64,000 bases of DNA from contig CAKQTG010000001.1 in NCBI GenBank assembly GCA_934276735.1, positions 224,455 through 288,454 on the forward strand. Direction: 5' to 3'. This document shows, piece by piece, positions 2,445 to 49,034 of this stretch (position 1 is its first letter; each line of letters starts with the position of its first letter). The stretch is from an uncultured Alphaproteobacteria bacterium. GTDB taxonomy: Bacteria; Pseudomonadota; Alphaproteobacteria; Rs-D84. Both the position numbers and the translations under genes were made by a program. The notes beneath the pieces were generated by a model. The model was not told the DNA's origin. It ran no database searches and worked only from the letters and a program-made list of their open reading frames with translations.

Positions 2445-4915
2445 AATTTATCGTGTGTTTTTATAAATTGGCGCATAAAACTGGAATCGAAATTTGTCAT
2501 AATTTCAGTCAATGAATAATTACGTGTGCCGTCTGGCGATATAGTCAGGCGAACGGGTGCAGGGGTTGGCGCCGTTCCCCGCATTGTCATATTTAACATG
2601 ACAGTCATATGCGCGTTTTCAATATCAAATTCACCATACGCATCAACGTGGCGCATTTGCAACGTAAATGGTTGCGCAGTTATAAAATTACCATTGGTGT
2701 ATTTACCAACAATACGCATTTTCTTTATTGCGGTTTCGCCACCGGTCAATGCGTCGGCTAATGCATATTCGGCATTAAAGGTGTTTATCTGGTCTGCGGA
2801 CGCATAGAATTCATCAAACCCTAATCCAATAATATATCCGCCGTAAAACGACAAATCCATGTCTCCGTCCAGGTTATACCATATATCGTGTGCGATGTGA
2901 CCATTGGTCTGTAATGAAATTTCAGCTGTAATCATTGTGTCACGGATATTCAGTGGCATTATGCGTGATAACAGATATCCATTGATTACAAATTTATTTA
3001 ATTGAATATCGATGTCGTATTTTGATGCGTCCTTGCGCAATGTGGCCAACAGATTTCCACGTGCCGCGTCTGTGATAGAAAATGTCTGGGTATTAGATTT
3101 CAGGGCGTATATAAAATTCTTGTATTCATTACCGTTGTAAATCAGTGTGTCTGCGGTCAAAGAAATATCAACCGGTAATTCAAATGGCAATGTTATTGGT
3201 GCGGCTGTCAGAAATTCTAATTCATCATAATTATCAATATAATTCTGGTTCGCAAATGCGTCGGCGTTTAATAATGCAGTGCGCAGGGTAACATTGCGGC
3301 CACTGAGGCTGCCACTAAATTTTTGGGTGCCGATTGTGACGTCCATATTTGATATGTTGCGGCCGCTGTATGTGCCGGATACTGTATATGGCGCGTTGTT
3401 CAATGATTGCAGGTCAACATTCGGTATTACGTCCTTGAAATTATCGCCAGAGAGCAGAAATGTTTTATCCGTCATAGATATTTTCCATTTCGCACCACGT
3501 GGTATGAACGCCATCGCACCGTCAGACCATTTCATGTCGCCTGTGGTATTCAGCATAAAATCAGGCAAGAATTTAAAGTCTGGCACCGCCCAACGCAATG
3601 TTTGATTACGCGCAAATGAATATGAAGCATTGACAGATTTTGGTGTTATGTTAAATACGCCGGCAATGTCATTGAATTGAAATTCCAGTTTTCCGTTTTT
3701 GCCCAGACGTCGCACCGCGCGGACTAATTTGTCAGCGTTTGGCATTTTGCCTGGTGCGCGAATTGATGCGTTAAATGTCCCGTTATCTACTGACAATGTT
3801 CCGGAAATATCGCCATATGAAAACTTTGAGCATTGCCATTTTTCCGGTGTGCCAGAAAATAAGCACATTGTCTGGATTCCGTCCACAGGCATTGTTACCA
3901 GAACATTATATGCGCCACTTGCATCAATTGTGCCACCTGTGACTGCAACATCATCAGCAATAATGTTTGATATTTGAACCAGTTTTTTATCGCCAATCGC
4001 ATTTATTTTCAGATGTTGGAATTCGTGCCCGGCAAGTTTTAATTTTCCGTGTAAGTCTAAATTAAATGTTGTGCGATAAAATATATTTGATGGGTTAGTT
4101 AAAAATGTAAAATCATAATCCAGGTCATTGGCCGTCAAATTGATTTCACGTGCACCATCAGGCAAAATTTTTATATCACCAGAAAAGTGGTCTGATTTTA
4201 TATCGGTAAATTCAAAACCGTATTCGCCGTCCCATGCGAAATTCATACTCAATTTTACAGGCACGTCAATACGTGGGTATGAGAATTCAAACCACTTGTT
4301 TATGTTTGGTGTGTCTATGTCCAGATGGCCACGCGCCGTTCCGTCTGAAAATAACATACCCGTAATTTCCAGTTTGTTATTATGATTTTTTATTACAAAT
4401 TCGTCGTCTAAAAATTCAAAATCATATTTGTGATCATTTGTGCGGACAGTTCCCGTCAGACCACCATTGGTCAAACGTGCACGCACAATATCATAATCCT
4501 TGTCATGAAACGTCACGACGGAATTATATATATCAACGGCGTTGTTAAAATCGGGGGCCGCTAACGATTCTATATTCAGTTTTGCGCCATGAATCCCAAT
4601 TCGCCCCTGTAATGACGCATTGTCTAAGTTAAATATGTCTGTTATTGGCACAGAAAACATAACCGCGTCAATATGCCCCATTGGAATACTGACGTTATGT
4701 GCAACAATCGTTGCGCGCCCCAGCAGGCTGAAATGAATATTGCCGTCAATTTGGGCGGTGATGCCAGTTTGTTGGTATATTGCCTGGGCAATCTTTGGGC
4801 GCATGTTGTTTATCGTTATCATTGGCGGAACAATGACCAACGCCAATGCCCCAGCCGTTGTGATAAATACAGCTGTCCATAAAATTCTGCGTTTATATCT
4901 GGGTTTTAATGCCAT
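2441..4915 (-). CDS. AsmA-family outer-membrane assembly protein (824 aa)
   Basis: N-terminal basic segment plus TM helix (KRRILWTAVFITTAGALALVIV), then a long beta-rich periplasmic region typical of AsmA/TamB-like proteins. Confidence 0.7.
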   Translation of the reverse strand: MALKPRYKRRILWTAVFITTAGALALVIVPPMITINNMRPKIAQAIYQQTGITAQIDGNIHFSLLGRATIVAHNVSIPMGHIDAVMFSVPITDIFNLDNASLQGRIGIHGAKLNIESLAAPDFNNAVDIYNSVVTFHDKDYDIVRARLTNGGLTGTVRTNDHKYDFEFLDDEFVIKNHNNKLEITGMLFSDGTARGHLDIDTPNINKWFEFSYPRIDVPVKLSMNFAWDGEYGFEFTDIKSDHFSGDIKILPDGAREINLTANDLDYDFTFLTNPSNIFYRTTFNLDLHGKLKLAGHEFQHLKINAIGDKKLVQISNIIADDVAVTGGTIDASGAYNVLVTMPVDGIQTMCLFSGTPEKWQCSKFSYGDISGTLSVDNGTFNASIRAPGKMPNADKLVRAVRRLGKNGKLEFQFNDIAGVFNITPKSVNASYSFARNQTLRWAVPDFKFLPDFMLNTTGDMKWSDGAMAFIPRGAKWKISMTDKTFLLSGDNFKDVIPNVDLQSLNNAPYTVSGTYSGRNISNMDVTIGTQKFSGSLSGRNVTLRTALLNADAFANQNYIDNYDELEFLTAAPITLPFELPVDISLTADTLIYNGNEYKNFIYALKSNTQTFSITDAARGNLLATLRKDASKYDIDIQLNKFVINGYLLSRIMPLNIRDTMITAEISLQTNGHIAHDIWYNLDGDMDLSFYGGYIIGLGFDEFYASADQINTFNAEYALADALTGGETAIKKMRIVGKYTNGNFITAQPFTLQMRHVDAYGEFDIENAHMTVMLNMTMRGTAPTPAPVRLTISPDGTRNYSLTEIMTNFDSSFMRQFIKTHDKF

Positions 4916-17967: not shown

Positions 17968-18042
17968 GCGGGCATAGTACAAAGGCTAGTATGCAAGCCT
18001 TCCAAGCTTGAAATGCGGGTTCGATTCCCGCTGCCCGCACCA
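17968..18042 (+). tRNA. tRNA-Gly (anticodon TCC), CCA encoded
   Basis: Manual cloverleaf: acceptor gcgggca/tgcccgc, D-stem gtac/gtat, anticodon stem caagc/gcttg with loop cttCCAa (anticodon UCC), T-arm gcggg-ttcgatt-cccgc, discriminator A, CCA. Confidence 0.85.
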
Positions 18043-18049
18043 AGAGATT

Positions 18050-18136
18050 GGGCGTGCGCCGGAGTTGGAGAGCCGGGGCAGACTGTAAATCTGTTGGCTT
18101 AAGCCTGAGCTGGTTCGAATCCAGCCACTCCCACCA
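18050..18136 (+). tRNA. tRNA-Tyr (anticodon GTA), class II long variable arm, CCA encoded
   Basis: Manual fold: D-stem ccgg/ccgg, anticodon stem gcaga/tctgt with loop ctGTAaa, variable arm tggcttaagcctga, T-arm gctgg-ttcgaat-ccagc. Acceptor gggcgtg/cactccc has one C4:U69 mismatch. Confidence 0.78.
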
Positions 18137-26437: not shown

Positions 26438-27742
26438 TTATTTCCCCAGACACAGTTGTGAAAATGTGGCGTCCATAACATCGGCAGCACTGATTGTGCC
26501 CAAGATTTTGCCGATTGCGTCGGCGGCGCGGCGAACGTGTTCTGAAAATATATCATAATTATCACCCGCGGTGATTGCATCGTGCAATTCGTTTTGTGCG
26601 TCCATCATCAGGGTGCGCGTGCGTGCATTGACCGTGATTTGTGATTCTGAATTTCCAACCAATTCATCAATCTTTTTACGGATTGCAATCATCAGGTTAT
26701 CAATTCCGTCGCCCGTCTTGGCCGATACATAAATCGCATTGCTTTTATTTTTGCAATCGCACAGGTCAGATTTATTTACAACGATAATTTCATTATTTGA
26801 ACTTTGAACTTTGAACTCTGAACTTTGACCGTCAATTACATGCAAAACCAAATCGGCGTTTTTAATTTCGTCATTTGTGCGCTGAATCCCGATCTGTTCA
26901 ATTTCGTCGTCTGTGTCGCGCAGGCCGGCGGTATCAGAAATGTTTACCATGTATCCGTCAATATCCAGGGTACACGACACAACATCGCGTGTGGTGCCGG
27001 GCGTGTCAGATACAATCGCACGATTTTCCCCAACCAGGCGATTAAACAATGATGATTTCCCCGCGTTTGTGTTGCCTGCCAATGTGATGTTGAATCCGCT
27101 GCGGATAGCGCGTGACGCCGCATAGCGCGAAATTGCATTGTCAATTTCGTTATATAAAACCTGGGCCTTGTCACGGATTTTTTTACCGATATTTGTTGGT
27201 AATTCGTCGTCTGCGTAATCCAAAATCGCGGCAGCGTATGCGGCGATTTCAATCATCTGGGACCGCCAGGCGTCATAAATCCGACTGTCGCGACCCATCA
27301 TAGATTTCAGTGCGGCGCGACGTTGACGTTCGGTCTGGGCGTCCAGCAATGCGGCCAGACCATCAATATCTGTTAAATCCATTTTGCCATTATAAAACGC
27401 GCGACGTGAAAATTCGCCACGTGATGCCATACGCGCACCGGTTGTGGCCAGAAAATCAAATATTTTATTTATCACCGCTGGCGCACCGTGCGAGTGGATT
27501 TCAATAACATCTGTGCCGGTGAACGAATGCGGGGCTGCAAAGAAAACTAAAATTACCTGGTCAATCAGGTCGCTCGCATTATCGGCCAGATTTGCAAAAT
27601 ACGCGTGCCGCACATCAAAATTATTGCGCCCCAACAATCGCGCAAACAAATCGCGCAGATTGTCGCCTGCAATTCGCACAACGGCAACGCCACTTTTCCC
27701 GTGCCCCGACGACAGGGCAAAAATTGTATCGTTATTATTCAT
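26438..27742 (-). CDS. mnmE: tRNA modification GTPase MnmE (TrmE)
   Basis: N-terminus MNNNDTIFALSSGHGKSGVAVVRIAG, G-domain GNTNAGKSSL, C-terminal CLGK. Confidence 0.92.
   Translation of the reverse strand: MNNNDTIFALSSGHGKSGVAVVRIAGDNLRDLFARLLGRNNFDVRHAYFANLADNASDLIDQVILVFFAAPHSFTGTDVIEIHSHGAPAVINKIFDFLATTGARMASRGEFSRRAFYNGKMDLTDIDGLAALLDAQTERQRRAALKSMMGRDSRIYDAWRSQMIEIAAYAAAILDYADDELPTNIGKKIRDKAQVLYNEIDNAISRYAASRAIRSGFNITLAGNTNAGKSSLFNRLVGENRAIVSDTPGTTRDVVSCTLDIDGYMVNISDTAGLRDTDDEIEQIGIQRTNDEIKNADLVLHVIDGQSSEFKVQSSNNEIIVVNKSDLCDCKNKSNAIYVSAKTGDGIDNLMIAIRKKIDELVGNSESQITVNARTRTLMMDAQNELHDAITAGDNYDIFSEHVRRAADAIGKILGTISAADVMDATFSQLCLGK
26798..26828. repeat. heptanucleotide tandem repeat (tgaactt x3 plus tgaactc) inside mnmE coding sequence
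   Basis: tgaactt tgaactt tgaactc tgaactt tga; encodes QSSEFKVQSS in the MnmE G-domain variable loop. Confidence 0.8.
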
Positions 27743-28326
27743 TATTTATTTCCAGATATTTCTTTCAGTGCCAATGGGACCAGGCGCGCAACATCGGCAC
27801 CAGGATTCGCGGCAACCAGTTTTTGCGCCATTTCAACAATGTCCAGACGGCGATAGCCCAATGATTCCAACGCCGCCAGTAAATCTGGCAGGGCAGAGCC
27901 GCCCGCGCCACCATCGGTTGTGGTAAAATCAAATGCAGAATTAGCAACCTTGCTTTTTAGTTCAATGATGATTTTTTCGGCCACCTTTTTCCCGACGCCG
28001 GGCGCGGCGGTAATTGTTTTTGCGTCCCCCGTTGCAATGGCGGACATCAGCGCGTCGGTTGGCAATGTGTTCAGTATGGACAGCGCACCCTTGGGCCCGA
28101 CACCAGATACGCCCGTCAGTTGCACGAACAGGTTTTGCGCCGCCAGCGTTTTGAACCCGAACAGGCGAATTGAATCTTCGCGTACGACGGTTTCAATCCA
28201 TAACGCGACTGTTTCGCGTGGGGACAGCGCATCTGGGGTAAAAACCTTGTATCCGACAGGACCCGCCATCAAAATCACGAAGCCGTCGCCAATATAATCA
28301 ACAACCCCTTGCAATTTGCCAATCAT
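27742..28326 (-). CDS. ruvA: Holliday junction DNA helicase RuvA
   Basis: MIGKLQGVVDYIGDGFVILMAGPVGYKVF; HhH motifs; stop overlaps mnmE start (ATGA). Confidence 0.9.
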   Translation of the reverse strand: MIGKLQGVVDYIGDGFVILMAGPVGYKVFTPDALSPRETVALWIETVVREDSIRLFGFKTLAAQNLFVQLTGVSGVGPKGALSILNTLPTDALMSAIATGDAKTITAAPGVGKKVAEKIIIELKSKVANSAFDFTTTDGGAGGSALPDLLAALESLGYRRLDIVEMAQKLVAANPGADVARLVPLALKEISGNK

Positions 28327-48563: not shown

Positions 48564-49034
48564 ATGGAAAAAAGACCAATTTCACGCGCTGGGTTTGACG
48601 CGCTGTTAAAAGAGTTAAAAGATTTAAAAGAGGTTCAACGTCCGGAAATCTTGAAAACGGTCCAGTGGGCGCGTTCGCTGGGGGATTTGTCGGAAAACGC
48701 GGATTACAGTGCAGCCAAGGAAAAACAACGCCAGATTGATAAACGTATCCAGTTTATTGAAGGGGTAATTGAAAATGCGGCGATTATTGATATTGACTCT
48801 TTGTCAGGTAATCGCGTTGTGTTTGGTGCGCGCGTTGTTGCCGAAGACGAAGATGGTAACCGTATGCAATGTCGAATTTTATCGGATATTGAATCTGATG
48901 GCCGACAGGTCATTTCGTGCACATCGCCGGTTGGACGCGCAATGATTGGGCGTTGCGTTGGCGATACGTGCATTGTTAAATTACCGTCTGGTGAAAAAGA
49001 ATACGAAATTTTGGAAGTAAAATTCAAGGACTGA
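48564..49034 (+). CDS. greA: transcription elongation factor GreA
   Basis: MEKRPISRAGFDALLKELKDLKEVQRPEI...GDLSENADYSAAKEKQ. Confidence 0.9.
   Translation: MEKRPISRAGFDALLKELKDLKEVQRPEILKTVQWARSLGDLSENADYSAAKEKQRQIDKRIQFIEGVIENAAIIDIDSLSGNRVVFGARVVAEDEDGNRMQCRILSDIESDGRQVISCTSPVGRAMIGRCVGDTCIVKLPSGEKEYEILEVKFKD

Follow-up and report, generated by a model that had tools for sequence, protein, structure and literature searches.

This analysis concerns a heptanucleotide tandem repeat that lies inside the mnmE gene of a 64-kb stretch of DNA (the window; the whole stretch that was analysed) from an uncultured gut Alphaproteobacteria bacterium. The open reading frame (ORF) that carries the repeat is identified by its sequence as the tRNA-modification GTPase MnmE (TrmE). 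The 434-residue product scored 459.1 bits against NCBIfam NF003661 (cut-off 380) and 319.4 bits against TIGR00450 (cut-off 252.6); it contains the Pfam domains TrmE_N (PF10396), MnmE_helical (PF12631) and the MMR_HSR1 G domain (PF01926). GNTNAGKS, DTAG, NKSD and a C-terminal CLGK are all found in the translation, which aligns over its full length to 1XZP and 9HIP. The features of the gene referred to below are:

26438..27742, minus strand: mnmE, tRNA U34 carboxymethylaminomethyl-modification GTPase, 434 amino acids (NCBIfam, Pfam)
26796..26828, minus strand: heptanucleotide array of 4.7 units (Tandem Repeats Finder, TRF; inspection of the sequence)
26798..26827, minus strand: codons Q306-S315 (QSSEFKVQSS), in the beta4-to-beta5/G4 linker of the MnmE G domain (translation, alignment)
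26924..26935, minus strand: G3 motif DTAG, residues 270-273, bounding the linker-containing segment on its upstream side (translation; coordinates checked by hand)
26765..26776, minus strand: G4 motif NKSD, residues 323-326, directly after the linker and strand beta5 (translation, alignment)

On the plus strand, positions 26798-26828 read TGAACTT, TGAACTT, TGAACTC, TGAACTT and TGA, and on the coding strand the units are CAAAGTT, CAGAGTT, CAAAGTT, CAAAGTT and CAAA; the plus strand can also be written as TTTGAAC three times, a T, and then CTGAACTTTGA. TRF placed the array at 26796-26828 with a period of 7, 4.7 copies, 92% matches and a score of 59, making it the top-scoring tandem repeat of the window. 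The array exceeds chance. Its lag-7 self-match score was 18, compared with a maximum of 16 for periods 4-15 in 200 Markov-1 simulated windows, and the two-unit pattern TGAACTYTGAACTY, allowing up to two mismatches, was matched eight times in the window (1.09 expected; 0 of 100 shuffles reached eight). The period of 7 is kept without interruption for at most 22 nt (3.1 units), the break being the G of CAGAGTT; across the variants found in the genus, there are 1.9-3.1 perfect units. An earlier note on this DNA had described a heptamer repeat of three T-type units and one C-type unit inside mnmE, in the G domain, encoding QSSEFKVQSS. The sequence, TRF, the Pfam match, the translation and the alignment bear this out, and only the order of the units needed correction, as the C-type unit is third (T, T, C, T) rather than last. 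An assembly artefact was rejected as the source of the array because the identical sequence occurs in many independent assemblies.

The array lacks obvious companions in the window. A promoter and terminator scan found no promoter-like site or terminator at the array, an inverted-repeat search of the window found no inverted partner, and folding gave no significant RNA structure (z = +0.32). The Rfam scan of the window likewise returned nothing there; its sole matches, also the only ones from ARAGORN, were adjacent genes for tRNA-Gly(TCC) and tRNA-Tyr(GTA) at 17968-18136.

The encoded peptide sits between HVIDG (strand beta4) and NNEIIVVNKSD (strand beta5, NNEIIVV, plus G4), and the linker aligns to the helix alpha3 region, between beta4 and G4, of 1XZP and 9HIP. 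It has 13 residues in the window versus about 22 in Thermotoga maritima (1XZP) and about 27 in Escherichia coli (9HIP), i.e., it is 9-14 residues shorter, and among 80 relatives it has ~12-16 residues of almost unconstrained sequence. Judged by alignment, MnmE of this lineage has a reduced G domain, in which a very short beta4-to-G4 connection of 13-15 residues (26765-26830 in the window, residues 305-326) would replace the helix-alpha3 segment. Sister species in the genus carry an AQNxPTTTTxP or TQNAPIASGAP cassette of equal length, within flanks that are 88-99% identical. The one reached by ruvA look-ups (P0182, P0170, P0187) has the repeat-free loop GTQNAPIASGAPN, an equal-length control. 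The length of the linker is thus constrained and its sequence not. The "loop insertion" of the earlier note does not hold, as the linker is shorter than those of E. coli and Thermotoga and sister species have an unrelated but equally long cassette in its place.

A unit of seven nucleotides changes the reading frame when one or two copies are gained or lost, as the earlier note had pointed out. In silico, a gain or loss of 7 or 14 nt gave products of 311-326 residues without G4 and the C-terminal domain, whereas a change of 21 nt kept the frame of mnmE. The note had taken this as the architecture of a phase-variable gene, and the allele survey bears directly on that claim. The nearest genomes come from uncultured Alphaproteobacteria of the human gut and were deposited as "uncultured Rickettsiales" UMGS metagenome-assembled genomes (MAGs), and farther relatives are Candidatus Enterousia and rumen MAGs. 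The material comprised 80 species-representative loci, the best 120 protein clusters (89-100% identity), four relevant metagenome contigs and 40 ruvA-anchored loci; loci of relatives are given L-numbers (e.g., L025). Alleles were also sampled through ruvA, the gene directly upstream, because full-length protein matches favour intact mnmE:

27742..28326, minus strand: ruvA, directly upstream of mnmE, the anchor gene in the mnmE allele survey

The number of units was identical in every one of the 24 sampled DNA copies of the array-type loop, which represent 13 sequence variants from several species and were drawn from the window, the species representatives, the metagenome contigs and the ruvA-anchored contigs. 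These copies differed by point substitutions (TTC/TTT, GAG/GAT, AGT/AAT and CAA/CAC) and otherwise only by whole-codon indels outside the array (an extra Gly codon). No 7-, 14- or 21-nt length variant was seen among the sampled alleles. At the protein level, a loop of 10-11 residues was present in 120 of 120 clusters and was of the QSS(E/D)FKVQ(S/N)S kind in 119; across these clusters, QSS-type loops varied by single substitutions or one added Gly. The 57 listed members of ten clusters were 434 or 435 residues long, with one of 429. In JGI metagenome contigs, a search for the conserved flanks at any spacing of 17-47 nt gave four matches, all with the wild-type spacing of 31 or 34 nt.

Three RuvA sequences from lineages that bear the repeat, reached via the cluster members P0280, P0294 and P0295, retrieved 24, 23 and 24 contigs, and no split mnmE was found among these 71. 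Each of the 10 distinct neighbourhoods shown had an mnmE for 434 or 435 residues with 4.7 units; for the other 61 contigs, the tool indicated neighbours identical to those shown. Provided that these 61 are intact too, OFF alleles would be below about 4% (rule of three). A profile search of the protein database with hypothetical -7 and +7 frameshift tails gave no candidates, although normal MnmE was also not returned by it.

Slipped-strand phase variation would mean that frequent gain and loss of units switches MnmE, and with it the modification of the tRNA wobble uridine, ON and OFF. Such switching is compatible with a unit length that is not a multiple of three and with truncation after a one- or two-unit change, and the three uninterrupted units reach the permissive detection threshold used for heptanucleotides in Haemophilus influenzae (PMC2651432). 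The perfect array of locus L025, described below, suggests slippage or homogenisation over evolutionary time. A coding-region heptanucleotide switch is also known: neuO of E. coli K1, a phage-borne gene for a capsule-modifying enzyme, contains (AAGACTC)n with 3-53 units, commonly ~20, and in 64 genomes was OFF in 65.6%, with variation both between and within strains (PMC13001214). The mnmE tract, with its 1.9-3.1 perfect units in the genus, is instead interrupted and invariant: neither a copy-number variant (24 DNA copies), nor a split gene (71 contigs), nor a variant spacing in metagenomes was found. Point changes within species break the repeat still further, and MnmE is a cytoplasmic housekeeping enzyme with no surface or restriction-modification function. 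We therefore regard phase variation as very improbable. The comparisons that the earlier note had proposed gave an identical copy number among relatives and, on alignment of the MnmE orthologs, a peptide conserved in them, an outcome that the note itself had named as speaking against phase variation. At the level of assembly consensus, SSR (simple-sequence repeat)-mediated phase variation of mnmE is not supported by these sequences. Programmed frameshifting was also considered and rejected, as there was no evidence for it and the full-length frame is conserved.

The start codon of mnmE overlaps the stop codon of ruvA by 1 nt (27740-27744), implying that the two genes may be translationally coupled. 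Downstream of ruvA is mnmE and not ruvB; ruvC lies apart on the opposite strand, past a YebC-family gene. In the sister-species loci L111 and L113 (1-1155), a rearrangement on the upstream side of the YebC gene gives DciA-RuvC-93-aa gene on the plus strand, where the usual arrangement is SecB / 92-aa gene / RuvC. Two contigs from different samples, L101 and L102, break at one point in mnmE (3820-3822, codon 412), away from the linker; this common breakpoint is possibly a strain-variable site that halts assembly.

A second heptamer array is present in the window, together with the gene it adjoins:

45863..45891, minus strand: second array, on the plus strand TGAACTC TGCACTC TGAACTC TGCACTC T (TRF)
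45890..46387, minus strand: J-domain (DnaJ) protein gene, 165 amino acids, its stop abutting the second array

TRF described 45863-45891 as 2.1 copies of a 14-nt period with 100% matches. The array is intergenic, between the convergent trxB and J-domain genes, and the TAG stop of the latter (45890-45892) overlaps its first unit; in-frame read-through would give SAEFRVQSS, a peptide of the same type as the MnmE linker. The earlier note had called the two arrays related. This is correct, for the 9-mer CAGAGTTCA is common to both, 19 kb apart (three occurrences vs 0.08 expected), and both belong to one TGMWCTY family. Look-ups via the J-domain protein and TrxB retrieved only the window's own scaffold family. 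Elsewhere in the window, a 9-nt tandem repeat, GTTAAAAGA x3.1 (TRF score 49), lies at 48605-48632 near the start of ORF 48564-49034.

Heptamer arrays are common throughout the clade. In 678 kb of clade sequence, TRF arrays with a score of at least 45 had a period of 7 in 25 cases, as against none for period 6, none for period 8, one for period 9 and five for period 12; most of the period-7 arrays have 4.0-5.3 units. Tandem runs of TGMWCTY, which covers TGAACTT/C, TGCACTT/C and TGCTCTT/C, numbered 23 in 626 kb vs 0.12 expected, and eight of the 23 were outside mnmE. Other branches use the units CACTAAC and AAATCAG. The window arrays therefore belong to a dispersed, lineage-wide family of short (TGMWCTY)n arrays that occupy intergenic DNA and tolerant protein loops.

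The mnmE linker (loop 1) carries arrays even in relatives that are only 62-69% identical (L010, L012, L025 and L032), and that of L025 is a perfect array of 4.6 units of CAAAGTG. An inverted array occupies the next mnmE loop, after G4 (loop 2), in L025, L032, L033, L045 and L078 (~3984-4023), where it encodes SELCTLNS. Forward TGAACTY x3 has TGA in all three frames, which explains why loop-1 arrays are always in reverse orientation and loop-2 arrays alternate with TGC units. Other genes are affected as well. In L021, TTTGAAC/TTTGCAC arrays bracket ruvC, one just upstream of its start (1089-1119) and one at its C-terminus (1599-1632), the latter encoding the last RuvC residues, AKFSVQSAKFN. Six heptamer arrays were found within 7.3 kb of L023 (3104-3140, 3926-3956, 3997-4028, 5590-5605, 6480-6509 and 6582-6610). 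Three of these are in mnmE, in an N-domain loop, loop 1 and loop 2; beyond mnmE there is an inverted pair, one arm of which encodes the lipoprotein signal peptide FCSLLFALCS, and arrays also lie in the DNA upstream of the lipoprotein gene. The L023 genome has more than one unit type.

Just downstream of the mnmE stop, there is a heptamer array in L032 and an inverted CACTAAC pair in L048. Downstream of ruvC (~1600-1660), CACTAAC arrays range from ~2 to 4.9 units across L042, L057, L065, L066, L069 and L074, and lie between a GC-rich terminator hairpin and the 3' end of a convergent gene. From this variation at an orthologous intergenic site, it follows that heptamer arrays do change length where they are unconstrained. 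A G-rich heptamer pair, GTCTGGG GTCTGGGG, was also noticed in L007 (1153-1167); it may be reminiscent of the G-rich, quadruplex-forming heptamer repeats reported for Xanthomonas and Nostoc (PMC4692102).

The recurrence of related units at separate loci of one genome, far above chance, could mean that the arrays are kept for a function of the nucleic acid itself: the tandem CARAG-NN units might be a protein-binding site, or the array might be the arm of a regulatory hairpin, and the family would in that case represent a motif with a regulatory or architectural role, which the mnmE linker happens to tolerate. Conservation of periodicity and codon choice in distant relatives fits such a function, as does the inverted array in the next loop of L025 and L032; in L025, the inverted arrays (3922-3953 and 3999-4023) flank the beta5/G4 segment and would pair in a stem of -30.1 kcal/mol (z = -4.9). 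Several arrays also follow a stop codon directly or separate one from a terminator, and translational regulation has been proposed for the TAACTGA heptamer repeats of Beggiatoaceae (PMC4679880). Against this, the closest sister species have swapped the array for an unrelated cassette with no visible loss, synonymous polymorphisms break the repeat within species, and the array in the window has neither an inverted partner nor a significant fold. The units moreover differ between lineages, and even within the L023 genome. (TGMACTY)x4 was found in 31 unrelated viral contigs, compared with 6 and 10 for two control heptamers of matched composition, from which we conclude that such arrays are SSRs of a generic kind, whose sequence preference is modest at most, and that they arise without a lineage-specific reader protein. 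A nucleic-acid function for the mnmE array is thus considered unlikely. The viral-contig scans gave no sign that the array originated from a phage or mobile element.

The dimorphism of the linker raises a different question, that of how the array came to be there. It sets the array-type loop (QSSEFKVQSS) against an A/C-rich one (AQNxPTTTTxP) and involves the window at 26792-26830 (codons 305-317) and the locus pairs L004/L005, L007/L009 and L002/L008 around 3915-3955. Set against the gene tree, the loop dimorphism suggests short-patch recombination or trans-species polymorphism. The array could have entered the loop as a block and be swapped like a cassette, through ectopic conversion or short-patch recombination with other arrays or other species as donors; the dimorphism would then be recombinational and would not reflect slippage at the site itself. 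Two unrelated, equally long cassettes within flanks of 88-99% identity are what such an exchange would leave, and in the gene tree L007 (array) and L009 (non-array) were grouped with 100% bootstrap support while L005 (non-array) was nested in an array clade at 89.5%. Growth in place from one or two units to 4.7 would have to pass through frameshifted intermediates, and the 16-mer CAGAGTGCAGAGTTCA of the L007 array is also found in the 45863 array of the window. However, the mnmE loop and the 45863 locus share no homologous flanks to guide conversion, gene trees built over 1.3 kb at 86-96% identity may themselves be mosaic, and neither a donor nor a mechanism was identified. We consider that cassette exchange is improbable as the explanation; it concerns the origin of the array and is compatible with an array that is fixed and does not switch today.

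The array in mnmE is, in our judgement, probably a frozen, fixed, in-frame member of the dispersed heptamer SSR family, located in a linker that is constrained in length and tolerant in sequence. This reading is built on the constant unit number, the conservation of the protein, the equal-length alternative cassette and membership of the family. Arrays of this family usually have four to five units and are typical of this uncultured gut lineage. We infer that the array in mnmE originated by replication slippage or tandem duplication and that the peptide acts as a spacer only. Three heptamers make 21 nt, or seven codons, and the array is read in all three phases, yielding QSS-(E/D)FK-V-QSS. A change of one or two units would truncate MnmE before G4, and selection would eliminate it. 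In many strains, synonymous changes leave even fewer perfect units in this short, interrupted tract, and together with the interruption they would keep slippage low; at present, the array would evolve through point substitution instead of slippage.

Several points weigh against so simple a picture. The heptamer periodicity and the Ser codons AGT and TCA persist in the loop of relatives that are 62-69% identical, a degree of conservation or homogenisation at the DNA level that exceeds what is expected of a neutral relic and hints that slippage or conversion has acted occasionally, or that the DNA or RNA is under selection. The distribution of array and non-array loops is incongruent with the gene tree, and the history of the loop was therefore more active, through recombination or cassette exchange, than simple decay. 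The AlphaFold2 model of the window MnmE, made with 30 close homologs, was unusable (mean predicted local distance difference test score of 34.7), and exposure of the linker at the protein surface is predicted from the alignment to solved MnmE structures. Finally, assemblies are consensus sequences, and minority length variants within populations lie below their view.

A more novel reading is that of a livelier family: an actively maintained, lineage-wide set of ~30-nt arrays, (TGMWCTY)4-5 plus sister units, that owes its spread or homogeneity to a specific mechanism and colonises tolerant loops of housekeeping proteins. Short-patch conversion, exchange of cassettes and selection for a reader protein or RNA structure would be candidate mechanisms. 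Its sites would be the three MnmE loops, the RuvC C-terminus and the lipoprotein signal peptide, and it would yield the trans-species cassette dimorphisms. We put this forward tentatively and consider it rather unlikely. If true, the family would be comparable to the Rickettsia palindromic elements or the cyanobacterial STRRs, though in miniature and not palindromic.

There is no evidence for phase-varied tRNA modification in this gut bacterium, and the repeat is a stable low-complexity coding sequence. A non-triplet repeat in an essential-type gene need not mark a contingency locus if it is short, interrupted and invariant between strains. The heptamer family and the dimorphic MnmE linker may be modestly useful as markers of strains or lineages, and they illustrate on a small scale how protein loops in nature can take up simple repeats.

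Among known systems, the cyanobacterial STRR heptamers are dispersed heptanucleotide repeats, and CCCCAGT, TTGGTCA and CAACAGT are named heptamer units. TGMWCTY is a new unit family, apart from these three and from TAACTGA. Heptanucleotides are the most abundant class of long SSRs (LSSRs; units of 5-11 nt) in prokaryotes, according to the summary of Mrazek et al. 2007 given in PMC4679880 and to PMC4692102. TAACTGA direct repeats occur in Beggiatoaceae, Cyanobacteria and Bacteroidetes as dispersed arrays of 2-6 units, with occasional copies within ORFs at protein peripheries (PMC4679880). The arrays described here resemble LSSR, STRR and TAACTGA repeats in being short tandem 7-nt arrays with many dispersed copies of a related unit per genome. 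As in TAACTGA-type repeats, most of them lie between genes and a few within ORFs, at places that tolerate them, and one orientation stops all three frames whereas reverse or modified units survive in ORFs. They differ from TAACTGA-type repeats in their unit (TGMWCTY, with CACTAAC in other branches), in their host, an uncultured gut Alphaproteobacteria lineage, and in that several copies lie inside conserved housekeeping enzymes (MnmE loops, RuvC C-terminus); in the small sample centred on mnmE, no bias to sites just upstream of start codons was seen.

With neuO, the mnmE array shares a heptanucleotide repeat within the coding sequence and a full-length protein that is made only if the repeat keeps the frame; unlike neuO, its tract has at most 3.1 perfect units, its number is invariant in the sampled copies, and the gene is a core housekeeping one. 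The hmw1A and hmw2A genes of H. influenzae have 13-38 heptanucleotide units in their promoters, variable between strains, with one 14-unit tract within a frameshifted ORF (PMC2651432). They too are associated with tandem 7-nt units, whereas the mnmE tract is short, is not in a promoter and shows no strain variation.

The Rickettsia palindromic elements are mobile palindromic elements of ~100-150 bp that are found in frame in housekeeping genes and add length to them. An insertion of that type was rejected for mnmE, since the array is 33 nt, is not palindromic (no inverted partner; z = +0.32) and adds no length. The resemblance is of another kind: in both cases, in-frame repeated DNA is tolerated at surface regions of conserved alphaproteobacterial proteins.

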